A stretch of DNA of 64,000 bases. Origin: Ignavibacteriota bacterium (GTDB lineage Bacteria > Bacteroidota > Ignavibacteria > UBA10030). The first letter of the stretch is position 1. Every line of letters starts with the position of its first letter. The position numbers and the translations under genes were made by a program. This document shows positions 50,170 through 64,000 of this stretch, piece by piece. The stretch covers positions 3,040,001 to 3,104,000 of the forward strand of contig OY969585.1 in NCBI GenBank assembly GCA_963701295.1, in the 5' to 3' direction. The notes under the pieces were generated by a model. The model saw only the letters and a list, made by a program, of their open reading frames with translations, was not told where the DNA came from and ran no database searches.

Positions 50170-53100
50170 TTATTTGATAAGCATCATTTGCTTTGATTGT
50201 GTAAATGTGTTAGCAATTATTCTGTAGAAATAGATACCGCTGGATAACGAAGCTGCATTGAACTCCACCGAATAATACCCTGCTTGCTTCGTTTCATGTA
50301 CCAACGTTGTTACTACCCGCCCGAGAATATCATATACCTGCAAAGTAACATAGCTCATCTGAGGCAGCTGATACTTGATCATCGTTGAGGGGTTAAATGG
50401 GTTCGGATAATTCTGACACAGAATATACTCATAAGGAATTGGGCTTGTCTTTTGAACACTCGTTGTCCATCGAACATCTGTTCCGCCGAGAACAAGTTCA
50501 GTTATTCCTCCAGATGGGTTAATGGTATTCACGCCACTCGGCCATATACCATCAGCATCCGTTGCAAATACAACAAGAGAACCAGTTGCAAGAGATCGAC
50601 GTTCTACACGCCTGACACCATTGGGTAATATATTGGGCAGAATAACACCGAATGAGCCGTCAATGCCATTCACATGAGTCGCATAGAATGCTGCATAATT
50701 GTTATCAATACTATTGTCGGTTCCATCGCTTTCGACAAACGACCCTGAAATCGGCCGGCCTGTTCCTGCCATGTTATCATAGATGAAGACAAAGTCTTTT
50801 GGGTTTGCTGCACTGGTGCAGCGAAGGCCAGTACCGGTACTATCAGCAACCAACGGATCCAGTTTTACGACTCGCACAGAATCGTGCATCGTCAAATGTT
50901 TAACCACGGCGGTACCAGACATACCATCATTCAGCCATATACGCATAAAAACATATTTCCCGGGGACAAACCGGTCATTTCCTGTCGGCTCGGTGATGAA
51001 CCAACCTTCATATGCTCCCGATGAATCTGTTTTCAAAATTCCATATGATCCTGTTGTATCGAAACTCGGTTTCGATGTTCGAATAAAGTCGCCTGTTGCT
51101 GAAGCGAATATACAATTGCCTGCACCGTCTGCAGAATCTGGATCTGTTGAAATTGCGATTTGATTGACGAAGTAATAAGTAGTATTCGTCAACAACCCTG
51201 TAAGTCGCGCTCGATACGCAAATGGAATTCGATCAGAATTCTTTTCCCAGTTAATTCCTTCTATATATTGTGGCAGGATAACTGATGTTACCTCAGCACC
51301 CTTGAGAGTCATTGCATTCGCTGTAGGTATTGTATCTGTTTTGTAATTACATGTATTGATATTGAATCCATCCCAAGCATACGGAAAGATTGAATAATGA
51401 TACGAAGTAAGGGCGGTAAGACCGGTCATGCTCACAGATGTCGTTGTACCCGACGGTACCAAAGCTGCAACTTTTCCATCGCCAAGAGAATCACCTACAG
51501 CATAGCTGGTAATATCTTTTGGAACGGCAGTAGGATCAAAGCCAATCCGTTGAAGTATAATGTATCCAGATGCTCCTGTTGCAGCATCCCAAGATAGATT
51601 GATTTGATTCGCCGAGACAGCTTTTGCAGAAAATGAATCCGCAGATGTAGAAGGTTCAATAGATAGAGTATAAAATGTTGCATCCGGTGAATACCCCGTC
51701 CCAATTCCATTTATTGCATAACCGCGGAAGTGAATAAACGTTCCAGATGGTAGGCTGCCTATCAGGACACTAAAAATTTGATTTGTATCTAAAGCGATGA
51801 GTTTGTGATCAGCCGTTGTCGGATTAGCAGATGTTGACCAGACGACACCTCGCTCAGCGATTGGGTCATTTCCATTTGAGATAATCTTTGAACCGAGGAC
51901 TGCTGTTGTTGATGTAATATTCGTAACAGTAGGTAAGATCAACGTTGGTGAAGAAGTATTCAGTGTAAAAGACGCTGTGATGGTCCTATTTTCGTTCATT
52001 ATTACTGTTAAAATTATATCTGTTTCATGTCCTGTAGGAACATCTCCTGCCCACGCCACGAAATGGTACGCGCTATCGGGATTCGCTGTGAGTTGAACAG
52101 TTGAGCCATATTGATAACTCTGTTGGTCTGGCACCTTTGTGATTGTTCCGTGCGAGGAATTCACCGTCAATGAATAGACTGAAGAGAGCATCGCATTAAT
52201 AAATGTTCCGTTTAGTGAAGCATTTGTAAATGTGAGCTTTGTTTGATTGTCGAGCGAAGCCATTGCGGAACCGGCAGCGCCGGAACTAAGATCCGCTGCA
52301 ACATAAAAATACCCTCCTGATGTTGCAATTGGCTGAGGAGTAGAAGAGATATCGAACGTAACCTGTGAGGATGGTGAAGCGACTGTTGACAGTAAAGTCG
52401 ACGAACCGACGCTAAACGATGCAGCAGTAGAATAATAAAGCTTAAGATTTGTGAGACCGCTGTATGTTCCAGACAATGTAACGACAACCTGAGTGAGCTT
52501 GCCACCAGTGATGTTTCCTGCAAGCTTGAATCTTCCAATTGGATTGTCATTTGTATTGGGAATGCCAATTGGTGGAGCATAGGATGTTCCATTCGTAAAT
52601 GAGATGAATGGAATCGGTGCAAATGCAACGCCATGCAAGAGAGTATTTGCAGCACCTGTTATCAGCGTTGTAAATGACGAACTAGATCCCGCATCGGTAA
52701 CTGTAACTAATTTATTATCTGTCGTGGTGGCATAGATAATTGCATTGGAGCCCGTCCAATCTACAACCAGCCCAGTTGCGCCTGTAGTTGAACTGGGTGC
52801 TAACAAATAAGTAAGTGACCAACTTGAACCGCTATATGTCCATTTTTGCACGCCTCCATTTCCATCTGTTCTATCATCAGCAACATAGATCGTATTGCCA
52901 TTTATTGAAAATCCAAAGGGGCTTGAAGTGGACGTCGGAAAACCGTTTAATAAAGTAATAGTTTGACCTGAAGTGGTTGGCACACCCGATCCTACCGATG
53001 ATATTCCGAAACATGAGCTTTTATTACTAGAAACATACAGTTGACTATTAAAAATATTTATTACGCGAGTATTCGTAACCGTTGTTGATAATTGCGTGGA

Positions 53101-53622
53101 ACTTATTGCTCCAAGCGTGGCATAACGTACACCGCCAGCAGCACCAGAGACCCAAAACGCTGTTCCATCATTTGTAACGGCACCGCGAATATTATTTGCA
53201 GAAGATGCATCTGTCAATTGCGTTGTTATATCTATTGAGGCGCTAGCATCAATTCTTGCGACAACTCGATTATATGCTGCAGATGTTGAGCTAGCGATCC
53301 CTGAAATCCCAGGAATAGCACCATATCCTGCGATAGTAAGATAGCGTCCATCAACAGAGCCAACGATCGATCCTTCACTCGATGCTGTTCCCGAAAGTGT
53401 CAAGGGTGCATTGCTTCCCGAAGATGAAGTTGGCATCGCGATAGATTGCACAAAAGAGCCGCCGGTTGTATATTCATCGAGAAAAACAGCTGTTGAAGCA
53501 CTGGTGAGCGAGTCACCAACACCTACCCGGACCACAACTATATTCCCCGCAGTAAATGATTGTGCAGCAACAGTGAGACAACCAAAAACGATGAGAGAGA
53601 ATACCCATAGTATTTTTTTCAT
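50170..53622 (-). CDS. Large Ser/Thr-rich T9SS-secreted surface protein (propeller-like N-terminus, InlB-B-like and Fn3-like modules)
   Basis: Signal peptide; FTAGNIVVVRVG...VFLDEY N-terminal domain; YQYGSTVQLTANP...F.AW.GD; ERGVVWSTSANP; CTD QNYPNPFNP. Confidence 0.75.
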   Translation of the reverse strand: MKKILWVFSLIVFGCLTVAAQSFTAGNIVVVRVGVGDSLTSASTAVFLDEYTTGGSFVQSIAMPTSSSGSNAPLTLSGTASSEGSIVGSVDGRYLTIAGYGAIPGISGIASSTSAAYNRVVARIDASASIDITTQLTDASSANNIRGAVTNDGTAFWVSGAAGGVRYATLGAISSTQLSTTVTNTRVINIFNSQLYVSSNKSSCFGISSVGSGVPTTSGQTITLLNGFPTSTSSPFGFSINGNTIYVADDRTDGNGGVQKWTYSGSSWSLTYLLAPSSTTGATGLVVDWTGSNAIIYATTTDNKLVTVTDAGSSSSFTTLITGAANTLLHGVAFAPIPFISFTNGTSYAPPIGIPNTNDNPIGRFKLAGNITGGKLTQVVVTLSGTYSGLTNLKLYYSTAASFSVGSSTLLSTVASPSSQVTFDISSTPQPIATSGGYFYVAADLSSGAAGSAMASLDNQTKLTFTNASLNGTFINAMLSSVYSLTVNSSHGTITKVPDQQSYQYGSTVQLTANPDSAYHFVAWAGDVPTGHETDIILTVIMNENRTITASFTLNTSSPTLILPTVTNITSTTAVLGSKIISNGNDPIAERGVVWSTSANPTTADHKLIALDTNQIFSVLIGSLPSGTFIHFRGYAINGIGTGYSPDATFYTLSIEPSTSADSFSAKAVSANQINLSWDAATGASGYIILQRIGFDPTAVPKDITSYAVGDSLGDGKVAALVPSGTTTSVSMTGLTALTSYHYSIFPYAWDGFNINTCNYKTDTIPTANAMTLKGAEVTSVILPQYIEGINWEKNSDRIPFAYRARLTGLLTNTTYYFVNQIAISTDPDSADGAGNCIFASATGDFIRTSKPSFDTTGSYGILKTDSSGAYEGWFITEPTGNDRFVPGKYVFMRIWLNDGMSGTAVVKHLTMHDSVRVVKLDPLVADSTGTGLRCTSAANPKDFVFIYDNMAGTGRPISGSFVESDGTDNSIDNNYAAFYATHVNGIDGSFGVILPNILPNGVRRVERRSLATGSLVVFATDADGIWPSGVNTINPSGGITELVLGGTDVRWTTSVQKTSPIPYEYILCQNYPNPFNPSTMIKYQLPQMSYVTLQVYDILGRVVTTLVHETKQAGYYSVEFNAASLSSGIYFYRIIANTFTQSKQMMLIK
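52201..52602. repeat. ~400-bp exact direct repeat, copy 1
   Basis: Identical by eye to 54331-54732 (offset 2130). Flanking paralogous sequence has scattered mismatches. Confidence 0.9.
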
Positions 53623-53697: not shown

Positions 53698-55758
53698 TCA
53701 TTTAATCAACACCATTTCCTTCGTTTCTTTGAATCTTTCCACTTGCAAATTATAGAAATACACTCCGCTTGGCAGCAAGTGTGCATCGAAAGTCACCAGA
53801 TAGGATCCCGCTGTTTTTTGTTCATTCACTAATGTTGCTACTTTTCGACCCAGCATATCGTACACTTTCAAACTAACGTAACCGGTAACTGGTAACTGGT
53901 AACTTATTACCGTTGTCGGATTAAACGGATTAGGAAAATTTTGATTCAACGCAAACACTTTCGGTGTTTCTATCGTTACCTGAGCTTCTTGCAGATATTT
54001 GAATGATCCATCGTTATTCACTTGCTTCAAGCGGTACGCATATGTACCGGAAGAAATTGTATTATCACTAAATACATAATTGTGCGGACTGCTGCTGGTT
54101 CCGTTACCCTCCACAAATCCAACGCAACTCCATGCTATCTTCTCCCAATCAGATGAAGAGTTAGATGGATTCTGACTACTAACAACTCTTCTTTCCACCT
54201 CAAACCCATAATTATTTATCTCTGTTGCTGTGCTCCATTTGAGCATTGCGGTCGAGCCAGTTGTTACTGCTGTAAAGGTGGTCATTTCAACGGGTAGGGT
54301 TACATTTCCAGAAGAAAGATTCGCGCCGGAAAATGTTCCGTTTAGTGAAGCATTTGTAAATGTGAGCTTTGTTTGATTGTCGAGCGAAGCCATTGCGGAA
54401 CCGGCAGCGCCGGAACTAAGATCCGCTGCAACATAAAAATACCCTCCTGATGTTGCAATTGGCTGAGGAGTAGAAGAGATATCGAACGTAACCTGTGAGG
54501 ATGGTGAAGCGACTGTTGACAGTAAAGTCGACGAACCGACGCTAAACGATGCAGCAGTAGAATAATAAAGCTTAAGATTTGTGAGACCGCTGTATGTTCC
54601 AGACAATGTAACGACAACCTGAGTGAGCTTGCCACCAGTGATGTTTCCTGCAAGCTTGAATCTTCCAATTGGATTGTCATTTGTATTGGGAATGCCAATT
54701 GGTGGAGCATAGGATGTTCCATTCGTAAATGAAATGAATGGAATCGGTGCAAATGCAACACCATGTAAGAATTTTTTTGTAGCTTTTGGAACGAGCGTTG
54801 TAAATGGTGAACCAGAGCCCGCATCGGTAACTGTAACTAAATTAGTATCTGTCGTGGTAGCATATATGATTGGATTGGAGCCTGTCCAATCTACAACCAG
54901 CCCACTCGCACCTGTAGTATCACTGGGGGCTAGCAAATAGGCAAGAGACCAACTTGAATCACTATAGGACCATTTTTGAACCCCTCCATTTCCATCTTTT
55001 CTGTCATCAGCAACATAGATGGTATTACCGTTTATTGAAAATCCGTAGGGACTACCTGTATTCGGAAAACCGTTTAATAATGAAATAGTTTGACCTGAAG
55101 TGGTTGGCATACCAGATCCTACCGACAATATTCCAGTATCTGTTTTTGCACAAGAAACATATAATTGATTATTAAAAATATTTACTACACGAAAATTCGT
55201 AAGCGTTGTTGATAATTGTATGGAAGTTGTTGCTCCAAGCGGGGCGGCATAGCGTACACTACCAGCAGCACCAGAGACCCAAAATGCTGTTCCATCATTT
55301 GTAACGGCACCGCGAATATTATTTCCAGTAGACGCATCTGTCAATTTCGTTGTTATATCCATTGAGGCGTTAGCATCAATCCTTGCGACAACTCGATTGA
55401 CCGTCGCAGATGTTGTACTCGCAACCTTAGTTGTTCCAGGTCCAACACCATACCCGGCGATAGTAAGATAGCGTCCATCAACAGAACCCACAATTGATCC
55501 TTCGCTCGACGCCGATCCTGAAAGTGTCAAAGGTGCATTGCTTCCCGAAGATGAAGTTGGCATAGCGATAGATTGCACAAAAGAACCGCCGGTTGTATAT
55601 TCATCGAGAAAAACAGCTGTTGAACTACTGGTGAGCGAGTCACCAACACCCACCCGAACAACCACTATATTCCCTGCGGTAAATGGTGATTGAGCAGTGA
55701 GAGAGGAACAAATAGCAATGCTGAGATTAAATACCCATAATATTTTTTTCATAATCAT
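53698..55758 (-). CDS. T9SS-secreted paralog of the adjacent 1150-aa surface protein
   Basis: First ~475 aa are highly similar to 50170-53622, followed by an LPVEM..F..WSTATEINNYGFEVER Ig-like module and a QNFPNPFNP CTD. Confidence 0.8.
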   Translation of the reverse strand: MIMKKILWVFNLSIAICSSLTAQSPFTAGNIVVVRVGVGDSLTSSSTAVFLDEYTTGGSFVQSIAMPTSSSGSNAPLTLSGSASSEGSIVGSVDGRYLTIAGYGVGPGTTKVASTTSATVNRVVARIDANASMDITTKLTDASTGNNIRGAVTNDGTAFWVSGAAGSVRYAAPLGATTSIQLSTTLTNFRVVNIFNNQLYVSCAKTDTGILSVGSGMPTTSGQTISLLNGFPNTGSPYGFSINGNTIYVADDRKDGNGGVQKWSYSDSSWSLAYLLAPSDTTGASGLVVDWTGSNPIIYATTTDTNLVTVTDAGSGSPFTTLVPKATKKFLHGVAFAPIPFISFTNGTSYAPPIGIPNTNDNPIGRFKLAGNITGGKLTQVVVTLSGTYSGLTNLKLYYSTAASFSVGSSTLLSTVASPSSQVTFDISSTPQPIATSGGYFYVAADLSSGAAGSAMASLDNQTKLTFTNASLNGTFSGANLSSGNVTLPVEMTTFTAVTTGSTAMLKWSTATEINNYGFEVERRVVSSQNPSNSSSDWEKIAWSCVGFVEGNGTSSSPHNYVFSDNTISSGTYAYRLKQVNNDGSFKYLQEAQVTIETPKVFALNQNFPNPFNPTTVISYQLPVTGYVSLKVYDMLGRKVATLVNEQKTAGSYLVTFDAHLLPSGVYFYNLQVERFKETKEMVLIK
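54331..54732. repeat. ~400-bp exact direct repeat, copy 2
   Basis: Identical by eye to 52201-52602. Confidence 0.9.
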
Positions 55759-60537: not shown

Positions 60538-60583
60538 GAAAAGAAAGAAAAAGGGTCGATTTCGAAAATTTCAAATCGACCCT
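60538..60583 (-). terminator. Rho-independent terminator after the IPT lipoprotein gene
   Basis: AGGGTCGATTT-N10-AAATCGACCCT hairpin followed by a T-rich tract on the minus strand. Confidence 0.75.
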
Positions 60584-60674
60584 CTCTGTCGCGGATTGTT
60601 CTATTGTCACATCGTCATTCCAATTGACAACACATTTCCTCTGATGTATTGGAATGACTGAAAATTATTCAAAC

Positions 60675-61928
60675 TCAATAGTATGGAGCACCGTTAATTC
60701 CTATATCAACCTTATAAACATACCAATTTATTGCTGGACTCACATTCGCGTTTCCACTTATCAGATAAAGCTTAGTACCTATGCAAAAATCCCTGCAATA
60801 GTCTGGAATAATACCTTTGTAGAGGGTTTCTGAGTGCTGCGTTGCCACATCAACAACAAGAATGGGATCCGGTGAATAGAAACCGATATACAGTTTACTT
60901 CCATCGGCAGAAAATGAAATACTTCGTATAGGACTATTAGCATACGTTGTTGTGGATAAGTCATAAAACAGAGTTTTATCACCAACTTTGCTTGTATCTG
61001 CAAGTGAACTGACCCAGATCGCATGACCAGTTGGCGTTCCTGCTGCAACATAGAGATTTTGATTTTGCAGATTTGTACCAAATACGCGAATCGCCCAAAT
61101 TGTATCTGTTGTGTTATTAAATACGGTTTCTAGTCTAGCTGATTTATTTGGGCGAATGACCTGCAGAGTAGTCCTTACTCCGCCTGCATATAGATATCCA
61201 TTGACATCAAAATCAAAACAGGTAAGGAATTTGGTGCTTTTATACCACAAAGAATCAGTTCCTGTTTGCATATTGATCATGCCCACTTTTTGGGCACCAA
61301 TACTACCAGGGCTAACATAAGTAGTTCCCATATAATAGAGATTTCCATCAGGACCAATTTTCGCCACCGTTGGACCTCCCGTACTTTGTGTCGCAGTTGC
61401 CACCGTTGTCCTCACGCCGTCTGGTGTTATTTTATAGACCGTAAAAGGAGTAGTTCCTTTGATAACATATAAGTTTTCTGCATTATCTAAAGCAACGGTA
61501 TTCAACTGGTCGTTCGCTACAAAGGAGCCAAAACTGCTAATGACACGATTGACTTTATAGGGACCTTTTTTTACAGGATAAAGCGCTTCGTATGATACTA
61601 CCGAAATAGTACAGGTATCGACCGAAAGATTAGGACGATACACCGTAATTGCAGTTGTACTCGAAGACGCTATTATCGCAGGGACGTTACCAAAATAGAC
61701 GAGATTGACGCTTGAAGCATCGGCGAAGTTTTGCCCCTGAATAGTTATAGTACTAACACCGGCAACTGCCGAATCGGGGGGGATAATTTGAGTAATCACA
61801 GGTATCACCGATCCCCCGGCGGGTTTATCCCACTTCGGTTCGGCAACATCATATTTGCATCCGGTAATAACCGTGATCAATGACGCTAAGACAAGGAGAG
61901 TCATTGTGAAGAAGCGTTTGGCTTTCAT
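60675..61928 (-). CDS. IPT/TIG-domain lipoprotein with beta-propeller-like C-terminus
   Basis: Lipobox ITGC; PVITQIIP...ITIQGQNF...VYFG (IPT); repeats such as DNAENLYV, GPDGNLYY, DVNGYLY and FSADGSKLY. Confidence 0.8.
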   Translation of the reverse strand: MKAKRFFTMTLLVLASLITVITGCKYDVAEPKWDKPAGGSVIPVITQIIPPDSAVAGVSTITIQGQNFADASSVNLVYFGNVPAIIASSSTTAITVYRPNLSVDTCTISVVSYEALYPVKKGPYKVNRVISSFGSFVANDQLNTVALDNAENLYVIKGTTPFTVYKITPDGVRTTVATATQSTGGPTVAKIGPDGNLYYMGTTYVSPGSIGAQKVGMINMQTGTDSLWYKSTKFLTCFDFDVNGYLYAGGVRTTLQVIRPNKSARLETVFNNTTDTIWAIRVFGTNLQNQNLYVAAGTPTGHAIWVSSLADTSKVGDKTLFYDLSTTTYANSPIRSISFSADGSKLYIGFYSPDPILVVDVATQHSETLYKGIIPDYCRDFCIGTKLYLISGNANVSPAINWYVYKVDIGINGAPYY

Positions 61929-61948
61929 AATTTTATTCCTTCCTCAGT

Positions 61949-63007
61949 TCAAAATAAAAATCGAGCGGTCATTCGTTGAACGTTGTTGAATACCCCATAT
62001 GGAGTATATGAGTAATCAAAAGCAAATCCAAATTGAGAGACCCCAACTCCAAATGATAGTCCGCTGTTTTCATCATTATTAGTAATATACCCGCCACGTA
62101 AGGAAAGCATATTCATTATCTTGTATTCTAATCCAATTTTCAACTGTTCAGGATGGTCCCGATAATGACTTGCATCAATGCTCATATATAAGGATTGGTT
62201 CAACGGAACTTCCCCGATCAGGTCCATAAGATTCATTGAGATTCCAAGTGTGAATGTCAATGGCAGTTGAAATTCTTCCTGCGCATATTGAACGTTTTCT
62301 GAAAAATTTCTAACCGACATACCAAACACAAGACTTTTTATACCAGTTTTGAATTGCGTTCCGAAATCTATCACCCACGTTCCCGATTTATTAGGAACAG
62401 TTACCGCACTATCTACATATTTTCCCGTGGTATGCCCAAGAGAATCAAGGAGTGGTACTTGTTTGTATACATTAGGGATATAACTATTTCCCAAATCTTG
62501 ATGAGCCCAGCGGATATGAGCTCCAACGCCAAATCGGTCAGTTAACCGTTTGGCATACCCAACACCGATTGCATAGGAATTCAATTTAAAGATGTCGATA
62601 TCATCGTATCCTTTATCAATATTTTGATCTACACGCGTACTGATAAAATTGCCATAGTCCACATATTGGGCGCTAAAACCAATAACACCGTAATTACCCT
62701 GTGCCGGATTAATGGCCATACCCACTGTATAGTGCCTGATATCGGCAATCCACTGGTTTGTACTGGCTGATACTTCAAAGAAATTTTCCATCCAGGACAT
62801 TCCAGCCGGGTTAAAAAACAAGGAACTGGAATTGGTTTGAAGACTGGTCATTGCTTCTGCCATCGCTGCAGCCTTGGCATCTGAAACGACACTCAAGAAT
62901 TGATATCCTGTTTGTGCTAATTTTTGATTGTCTTGCGTAAACCCATATTGGTGTAGCAGGCTTACCATCAAAAAACTAACTATGATTCTACCTATCTTCT
63001 TTTTCAT
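61949..63007 (-). CDS. PorV/PorQ-family outer-membrane beta-barrel
   Basis: AQTGYQFLSV..DAKAAAMAEA, SLFFNPAG, GYAKRLTDRFGVG, LSLRGGY, FDYSY, C-terminal F. Confidence 0.8.
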   Translation of the reverse strand: MKKKIGRIIVSFLMVSLLHQYGFTQDNQKLAQTGYQFLSVVSDAKAAAMAEAMTSLQTNSSSLFFNPAGMSWMENFFEVSASTNQWIADIRHYTVGMAINPAQGNYGVIGFSAQYVDYGNFISTRVDQNIDKGYDDIDIFKLNSYAIGVGYAKRLTDRFGVGAHIRWAHQDLGNSYIPNVYKQVPLLDSLGHTTGKYVDSAVTVPNKSGTWVIDFGTQFKTGIKSLVFGMSVRNFSENVQYAQEEFQLPLTFTLGISMNLMDLIGEVPLNQSLYMSIDASHYRDHPEQLKIGLEYKIMNMLSLRGGYITNNDENSGLSFGVGVSQFGFAFDYSYTPYGVFNNVQRMTARFLF

Positions 63008-63018
63008 TGATCAACTCC

Positions 63019-64000
63019 TTACCTGATAATCACGAACTTACGGAAAGTAGATTGGCCTGCACTAAAAATCTTATCACCTTTTTGGAACATCGTTTGGCCT
63101 TGAGAATATATCTTATGTAAATTTTCATCAGTAATATCATACTTAGCAATTTCATCTTCTTTGGCGTATGTATCTTCGGTGACTTCGACATACAAGATAT
63201 AAATACCACTGACTACGACCTGACCTGAAGAAGTCTTTGAATCCCAGATTTCATCACCCGATCCATTGGTATGAAGTATTTCCAAAATCTTTGTCCCATT
63301 TTCAGTAAATATTTTTAACCTGCATTTTGGTGGAAGTCCATAAAACACAATACGGTCATATTGGAATTGATCACCAAACTGCCATTTCCGTGACCGAATG
63401 TCGTATGGATTAGGAACTACCCGAATTTCACCTAATAAATTAGCTGCAGGCCTAAGCAAATTTGCCGCAACACTCGTTAATGTTAAAAACATGCTGCTAT
63501 ATAAAGGAGTGCCCGGCCTGAGATCATTCTGTGTACCGTCATCCTTCGATTGAATAGAATAATAATAATTAAACCCTCTCACAGCGGAAGTATCATCCCA
63601 GGTGTTACTCGTATAGGATTTATCGCATTCAAAAACCTTTGTATACACTGTACGAAAATCCTTCACACTGCCTACGGCTCTAGTGATCACATACCCATTA
63701 AAATGTGGATCTGCTGCAGCATTACCAGACCATTGCAAGTTTATACGATCACCCCCTGATGTAACTATGAAATGATCAGGTGCTGGTGGAGGCTGAGGGA
63801 GAGTATAACCAGAATAATAATTTCTGAGCGCACTGTGCATGGTTTGTTTAATAGAATCCACTCCTGTAAAAATCCAAGCTTTCGTGTATTCTTCATATGG
63901 TAAGCTCGCCGGAAAATAGCCAGGAGGACGGGTAAGAGGGGGATTGAGCGTAGGTGCGCTTGCGGCTGTAAAATATTGATACCAGTTTTCACCGACCTCG
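63019..64000 (-). CDS. Large secreted protein with atypical (FlgD-Ig-like) CTD; 5' end off the window
   Basis: Frame open to the window edge (EVGENWYQY...TGVDSIKQ); PQPPPAP plus Fn3-like module; IRVVPNPY...RIVFYGLP...KIFTENG...WD...SGIYILYV...KFVIIR. Confidence 0.75.
   Translation of the reverse strand, partial: EVGENWYQYFTAASAPTLNPPLTRPPGYFPASLPYEEYTKAWIFTGVDSIKQTMHSALRNYYSGYTLPQPPPAPDHFIVTSGGDRINLQWSGNAAADPHFNGYVITRAVGSVKDFRTVYTKVFECDKSYTSNTWDDTSAVRGFNYYYSIQSKDDGTQNDLRPGTPLYSSMFLTLTSVAANLLRPAANLLGEIRVVPNPYDIRSRKWQFGDQFQYDRIVFYGLPPKCRLKIFTENGTKILEILHTNGSGDEIWDSKTSSGQVVVSGIYILYVEVTEDTYAKEDEIAKYDITDENLHKIYSQGQTMFQKGDKIFSAGQSTFRKFVIIR

Follow-up and report, generated by a model that had tools for sequence, protein, structure and literature searches.

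The window analysed here is a 64,000-nucleotide stretch of the genome of an Ignavibacteriota bacterium (G000:C1:3040001-3104000; single contig, 3.64 Mb, 99.3% complete). At its end lie the last three genes of a four-gene cassette that is likely an outer-membrane sugar-uptake unit. The first gene, outside the window, encodes a TonB-dependent transporter (TBDT). It is followed by the gene for a protein with an atypical C-terminal domain (CTD) of type IX secretion system (T9SS) type, hereafter called the partner, and by the genes for a PorV-family barrel and an IPT lipoprotein. An initial annotation of the window had noticed these three proteins and proposed that they form a glycan-capture module independent of SusD; the observation itself is confirmed. 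Positions labelled L001 refer to a locus that extends beyond the window end and is numbered as window position minus 60000; other positions outside the window are those of the genome (G000:C1). The features are as follows.

60540..60586, minus strand: intrinsic-terminator-like hairpin with U tail at the cassette end (hairpin ~60548-60586)
60675..61928, minus strand: lipoprotein gene, 417 aa, IPT/TIG domain and beta-propeller (PF01833, E 5e-10; lipobox ITG-C seen in the sequence)
61949..63007, minus strand: barrel gene, 352 aa, PorV/PorQ family, cassette-specific paralogue (NF033709, 179 bits)
63019..64000, minus strand: 3' part of the partner gene, an open reading frame (ORF) open at its 5' end; whole gene L001:3019-5301, 760 aa
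Partner domains: signal peptide; predicted galactose-mutarotase-like beta-supersandwich and linker helices, ~30-500; FnIII, ~510-590; PorZ/PorU-like CTD, ~621-760
63058..63183, minus strand: loop with a 39-aa insertion, between the final two CTD strands
L001:5337-8594, minus strand: TBDT gene, outside the window and upstream of the partner gene
~L001:8730-9100: promoter and broken LacI remnant, between the tandem cassettes
L001:9239-9673, plus strand: IS3 remnant, between the tandem cassettes
L001:10075-18378, minus strand: second tandem cassette, upstream of the window cassette

The three window genes are tightly spaced minus-strand ORFs, as first described, with gaps of 11 bp (partner-barrel) and 20 bp (barrel-lipoprotein). 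The TBDT that had been predicted just beyond the window was found 35 bp upstream of the partner gene. The initial annotation had also noted a strong terminator. A hairpin with a U-rich tail is present (-20.8 kcal/mol, z -2.9; 3/200 shuffles fold as well). However, a simple terminator scan did not list the hairpin at ~60548-60586, and we therefore call the terminator plausible rather than strong. A sigma-70 promoter scan performed at chance level (63 vs 58), a plasmid match search returned no match, and no RNA data set was listed among the sequencing runs.

The arrangement recurs in the genome. All ten TBDTs scoring above 400 bits with a profile of six cassette TBDTs were followed by a CTD protein and then by a PorV-family barrel, while the lipoprotein was present in 5/10 cassettes. 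An alignment of the cassette CTD class found exactly 10 matches in the genome, compared to 98 tails of PNPFN type, and PorV_fam was above cut-off at 14 loci (19 matches). Note that three of the ten cassettes (at 2007592, 2504727 and 2875200) contain a split gene, reflecting either assembly frameshifts or pseudogenes. Among 13 loci encoding relatives of the partner, a TBDT was located upstream in 12, a barrel was called downstream in 11 and the lipoprotein was found in 12; where a gene is missing, the contig ends or an ORF was left uncalled, and the order is otherwise consistent where the DNA allows. The labels of these loci include Ignavibacteriota, Calditrichota and KSB1, the closest being labelled Bacteroidota and Ignavibacteriota bacteria. 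The clusters returned by the ESM Atlas were all unnamed and most frequent in Fidelibacterota, Gemmatimonadota and Zixiibacteriota. In five of the 13 loci a small gene of ~200-230 aa precedes the barrel. Such an unannotated gene between partner and barrel was seen at L008, L009, L011, L014, L015 and L051, and is lipoprotein-like where its start was read.

To sample from the barrel outwards, we took 40 stretches from six genomes belonging to other families, chosen to surround listed PorV-family matches (every listed match in five genomes and 3/5 in G016; one stretch, L029, repeats L003). These contained 41 barrel ORFs, two stretches having none. Barrels scoring at least 190 bits with a profile built from the cassette barrels of the window's genome, a split chosen after the scores had been seen, were called cassette-like; these numbered 26 of the 41. 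A TBDT was encoded within three genes upstream of 25/26 of these but of 0/15 other PorV-family barrels. The order TBDT-CTD protein-barrel was kept at 21/26 loci, and the lipoprotein was present at only 3/26. Pairwise identities of TBDT, CTD and barrel co-varied over 35 cassettes (Spearman 0.70-0.79; 0/2000 permutations). Thus, what is conserved is the set of TBDT, CTD protein and barrel, to which one subtype adds the lipoprotein. The synteny that had been predicted to include the lipoprotein is conserved for the core order. A rearranged form was seen in four other families (L017, L033, L039, L054), in which one or more CTD proteins and a 560-870-aa protein of unknown type precede the TBDT and then the barrel; these barrels form a clade of their own.

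We next consider SusD. No match to PF07980, PF14322, PF12771 or PF12741 was detected in this 99%-complete, single-contig genome (in the control, B. thetaiotaomicron, the models did match), in agreement with the initial annotation, and the gene directly after the TBDT encodes the 760-aa CTD protein, not SusD. Among 61 genomes of the order, the CTD class was present in 59 (1-18 copies) and SusD_RagB in 7 (1-2 matches). Across 121 genomes of the phylum, 38 had both, 31 the cassette CTD only, 26 SusD only and 26 neither; this survey counts CTD matches rather than whole cassettes, and its highest SusD counts stand for at least 17. Only one of 18 phylum genomes with at least 8 SusD matches had the CTD class, whereas 19 of 21 cassette-rich genomes had 0-1 SusD matches. 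Copy numbers of SusD and the CTD class were negatively correlated (rho -0.59, 95 genomes), a value that is overstated because related genomes are not independent. Strict exclusion of SusD, and with it the view that SusD and cassette are mutually exclusive, is ruled out by the 38/121 genomes holding both; the two trade off against each other without being exclusive. In this genome, a further three large TBDT genes (953-1033 aa; at 599255, 2443164 and 76565) are each directly followed by a CTD protein of the canonical PNPFN type, and a barrel is lacking. GH26/GH130 genes accompany one of these pairs and galactose genes another, and the pairs possibly represent a second SusD-free arrangement.

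The barrel passes the PorV_fam model NF033709 (179 bits; cut-off 90) but neither the PorV equivalog (73 vs 250 bits) nor the PorQ equivalog (87 vs 220 bits), and its only PDB sequence match is PorV (6h3i_F). In a quick tree of 65 rows, it fell within a clade of 17 rows (SH-aLRT 100), every one of them encoded ahead of the lipoprotein, while the housekeeping PorV formed a separate clade (100); deep branches among the cassette barrels were weak (SH-aLRT 80-85). The approximately unbiased (AU) test on the quick tree (LG+G4, 29/65 rows) rejected a grouping of the window barrel with PorV (p 0.0007). The barrel is thus distinct from the single housekeeping PorV, as had been proposed. The genome's best-scoring PorV-family gene, at 2968861, lies beside a 1329-aa gene that we call PorU-like on the grounds of its size and position rather than of a family scan. 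PorZ is encoded at 1390893. SprA is present, split into ORFs of 2035 and 310 aa (3470808-3477759) by an assembly frameshift or as a pseudogene. A search of the genome for GldM gave no match, the control being silent as well.

The initial annotation had invoked the precedent of type-B CTD cargo with a co-encoded PorP/SprF barrel. We found no support for this model: the barrel scored 19.7 bits with TIGR03519 (cut-off 90.55; control genomes gave no match either), the type-B CTD model TIGR04131 had no match in the genome (control likewise silent), and the CTD profile favours PorZ/PorU. Pairs such as SprB/SprF and Fjoh_3952/3951 resemble the cassette in having one shuttle gene per substrate, directly downstream, but the cassette barrel belongs to another family and its CTD to another class.

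The partner CTD reads VVPNPY...FRKFVIIR and, as initially stated, is unlike the tails of six other cargo genes in the window. These six pass TIGR04183 (42-48 bits in five, 38.7 in one; cut-off 23) and carry QNYPNPFNP exactly in four cases, with QCYPNPFNP and QNFPNPFNP in the remaining two, whereas the 760-aa protein has no TIGR04183 match at E<=0.01. Neither it nor its tandem paralogue (20.5 vs 23 bits) reaches the cut-off of the type A models TIGR04183 and PF18962, although the fold is still CTD-like. The cassette class is marked by a long loop behind PNP[YF] and by a longer stretch ahead of the SG-Y motif. The insertion of ~40 aa that had been noted is present and measures 39 aa relative to the tandem paralogue in alignments. 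However, it is a variable loop and not a mark of the class, because most cassette CTDs lack it: it is found in the closest relatives, is shorter in a few and is absent from the tandem paralogue. The loop is modelled as short strands (pLDDT 87-97) and, judged from topology and the motif positions in the available part of PMC11969387, should point away from the barrel-binding end.

In structure comparison, the modelled CTD matched that of PorZ with Z 12.1 (root-mean-square deviation (rmsd) 2.7, 87 residues aligned). A profile of the CTD class run against PDB sequences returned PorZ (E 2.8e-5) and PorU (0.01) as top matches. In contrast, a control profile of canonical tails matched other sorting domains (8glj_D, 8glk_D) and neither PorZ nor PorU at E<=1. 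By sequence and predicted fold, the cassette CTD is thus closest to the tails of PorZ and PorU. According to the available parts of PMC11285876, PMC5562754 and PMC10947112, these tails are not removed, and PorZ is anchored by PorQ. Because of this closeness to uncleaved tails, PorQ-PorZ is a better precedent than the type-B system: as in PorV-PorU, a single surface protein whose CTD stays uncleaved is anchored there by a barrel of the PorV family. The likeness has limits. PorQ-PorZ is a single-copy housekeeping pair for lipopolysaccharide (LPS) attachment, whereas the cassette barrels are multi-copy and TBDT-linked; the genome has its own PorZ and a separate clade of solo PorV-family barrels besides the cassette barrels; and the partner matches PorZ at the CTD only.

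Alternatively, the barrel might be a private but transient shuttle, passing the partner to the PorU sortase for cleavage and LPS attachment or release; the partner would then act close to the transporter without a stable three-way complex. PorZ and the PorU-like gene next to the housekeeping PorV are at hand for such a route. In the accessible text of PMC12618676, moreover, type-B shuttles are cognate and act in targeting, and in that of PMC11285876 a PorZ/PorU-like hairpin grafted onto RgpB did not block cleavage. However, one barrel per partner in 10/10 cassettes fits 1:1 retention better than recycling, and the CTD is nearer to two uncleaved tails than to cleaved ones. We consider a transient shuttle unlikely.

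The body of the partner had no Pfam match at E<=0.01, and a PDB sequence search with its profile gave weak matches only, mostly to FnIII. An AlphaFold2 (AF2) model (pLDDT 92, 116 sequences) comprises a large beta-sandwich, linker helices, FnIII and the CTD. The best VIA-align match was the N-terminal part of dextran dextrinase (Z 18.4, rmsd 3.5, 259 aligned), with similar matches to GH15/GH65/GH94 enzymes; all span the non-catalytic N-terminal supersandwich regions of these enzymes. The (alpha/alpha)6 catalytic barrel of GH15/GH65/GH94 enzymes is absent from the model, which has only short helices and a linker pair ahead of FnIII. The partner is thus predicted to be a beta-supersandwich of carbohydrate-enzyme type without catalytic barrel, followed by FnIII and CTD. 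Function is not shown by the shared fold. Many positions are invariant, aspartates and aromatics among them. In the tandem paralogue, CBM5/12-like repeats precede the CTD.

The lipoprotein was modelled as an IPT domain and a beta-propeller (pLDDT 93.5). Its top Foldseek matches are the Bacteroides proteins 3hrp, 3tc9 (BT_3476) and 4hw6 (E 1e-12 to 1e-10). These, with 3kya, are lipoproteins of the same predicted two-domain architecture, two of which were titled 'auxiliary nutrient binding protein' by their depositors (4hw6 is BACOVA_00264), although identity to the cassette lipoprotein is only 10-12% and TM ~0.5. We take all four to come from polysaccharide utilization loci (PULs). Given this predicted resemblance, the lipoprotein would be placed like SusE rather than replace SusE-type surface binding, as the initial annotation had it.

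A different division of labour is conceivable, in which the cassette imports glycans with the lipoprotein as lid, while the CTD protein belongs to a new family and has an accessory part at the surface as enzyme or binding protein. The known lids other than SusD are lipoproteins (available part of bioRxiv 10.1101/2023.03.17.533168), eight insertions specific to the subtype are present in the TBDTs of cassettes that include the lipoprotein (14 vs 21 cassettes), and the invariant aspartates and aromatics of the partner would suit this role. However, the lipoprotein is missing from 5/10 own cassettes and from 23/26 of those in relatives. The CTD protein, in contrast, is a constant member and is usually encoded directly behind the TBDT, in the place of susD; its fold match, moreover, spans the non-catalytic part of enzymes. 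A lipoprotein lid therefore appears improbable to us.

The cassette TBDT scored 81 bits with the SusC model TIGR04056 (cut-off 368), the best stretch being confined to its N-terminal part, and, outside its N-terminal domain, lacks close relatives of solved structure. Compared to SusC/SusD PULs and utilisomes, the gene order is similar: TBDT first, a constant partner gene directly behind and an IPT lipoprotein further down, with a divergent regulator, surrounding carbohydrate-active enzymes (CAZymes) and many paralogous copies per genome. In contrast to these systems, the TBDT lies outside the SusC family, a PorV-family barrel is part of the unit, and the partner is a non-lipoprotein without SusD match, with a predicted beta-supersandwich and a T9SS-type tail.

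The genes around the cassette bear on its substrate. The tandem cassette is 57% (TBDT), 62% (CTD) and 64% (barrel) identical to the window cassette and is set apart from it by a terminator and the IS3 remnant. Upstream of it lie a divergent LacI gene, a sugar kinase gene, an ORF resembling xylose isomerase by its sequence (no Pfam match at 1e-6), a sodium:solute symporter gene and two GH31 genes. The promoter region of the window cassette is a close copy of that of the tandem cassette, including an operator-like near-palindrome; only these two sites have an exact copy of its 14-base core. In the window cassette, the 5' end of LacI is broken. The interval L001:8730-9673 thus holds an IS3 transposase remnant, the broken 5' LacI remnant and the duplicated promoter region. 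Downstream of the window cassette is a GH51-like CTD protein (E 3e-5), and further along the window are GH31, GH97, GH3, GH51, GH95, GH2 and GH127 genes with genes of pentose-pathway type; GH43 and sugar kinases also belong to the neighbourhood. The adjacent CAZymes mentioned initially thus form part of an arabinose/xylose region, which suggests xylose/arabinose glycans as the substrate. Glycoside hydrolase (GH) or carbohydrate-binding module (CBM) genes occurred within four large genes in 6/8 other own cassettes, compared to 4/13 other TBDTs (Fisher p 0.08; seven flanking genes crossing locus borders excluded), making CAZyme linkage in the genome as a whole suggestive only.

PorF is a TBDT-like T9SS protein. 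By analogy, the cassette TBDT could be a secretion or assembly component for the partner, with the cassette displaying a surface adhesin. PorF is listed as a T9SS component, the TBDT lies far below the SusC cut-off and lacks close solved relatives beyond its N-terminal domain, and two own cassettes have no CAZyme neighbours. In contrast, a LacI gene or its remnant stands at the head of each of the two tandem cassettes within a pentose/hemicellulose locus, other cassettes adjoin starch, GH94 or GH16/GH30 genes, SprA is present, and copy number is inversely related to SusD. We judge a secretion role very unlikely.

We instead propose, as reasonably probable, that the partner is exported through SprA and collected by its cognate barrel rather than by the housekeeping PorV. 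It would then remain on this barrel, held through a tail that is likely uncleaved, in the manner of PorZ on PorQ, with its body at the mouth of the transporter doing the job of a SusD lid or of a glycan-binding protein. A xylose/arabinose-containing oligosaccharide may be imported under control of a LacI repressor, the lipoprotein being an accessory of the uptake unit. With a TBDT upstream, susD absent, the barrel outside PorV and the core order conserved, none of the four refuting outcomes named initially was observed; the interpretation first offered is supported in part, with the details corrected as described above.

Several observations weigh against this proposal. The TBDTs do not match the TonB_dep_Rec barrel Pfam. 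The likeness of the CTD to PorZ is no proof of retention, because the grafted hairpin left RgpB cleavage intact, and the PorZ-type hairpin also occurs in a few canonical tails. The supersandwich fold is found in non-sugar proteins as well, e.g. the periplasmic domain of YidC. Bodies of lipoprotein-less cassettes match that of the partner at marginal scores at best, and one mechanism might therefore not cover all cassettes. Co-divergence is no proof of contact, since duplication as a block yields it. CAZyme linkage is not universal, two own cassettes being placed among housekeeping genes. Finally, besides the coexistence of SusD and CTD class in 38/121 phylum genomes, two genomes have 10-11 cassette CTDs together with 6 SusD matches.

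More broadly, the cassette may represent a second glycan-capture architecture in Ignavibacteria-like and other bacteria of the Fibrobacterota-Chlorobiota-Bacteroidota (FCB) group, a generalization for and against which we see the evidence as balanced. A T9SS-secreted, non-lipidated lid or binding protein would be held by a private PorV-family tether beside a TBDT, with a CTD class of its own, largely trading off with SusC/SusD over the phylum; the four-gene subtype would add the IPT-propeller lipoprotein and matching transporter insertions. The component parts are known. Their combination as a TBDT-CTD-PorV cassette was not found in the literature searched, which excluded most subscription papers and supplements, and the terms PorV, T9SS and Ignavibacteri are absent from the available text of a 2026 review of glycoside transporters. 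In the accessible part of PMC10576277, susCD is reported to be only scarce in the CAZyme clusters of Ignavibacteriales, which leaves their uptake route open; the cassette is a concrete, testable candidate for it. If the proposal is correct, the cassette would mark polysaccharide loci in lineages missed by susCD-based tools, define one more class of T9SS tails, served by barrels of its own, and connect nutrient import directly with type IX secretion. Lipoprotein homologues named from Melioribacter and Rosettibacter suggest cultured hosts for testing it.

Four further observations were made. The cassette at 2007592-2016814 lies beside rpoA/rplQ and ahead of a GWxTD-domain gene, and no CAZyme is encoded near it. 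The lipoprotein-type cassettes at 2277923 and 2875200 are headed by genes for a solute-binding protein, a histidine-kinase-like ATPase and a sigma-54 activator, not by LacI. At 2668671-2672079, and likewise at L027 and L046, a 500-517-aa protein with a PorU/PorZ-like tail is followed by two PorV-family barrels with no TBDT, an arrangement kept in three families. In the window, the adjacent CTD genes at 50170-53622 and 53698-55758 encode near-identical N-terminal ~480 aa, to which no family was assigned, and differing C-terminal parts, pointing to a recent duplication.

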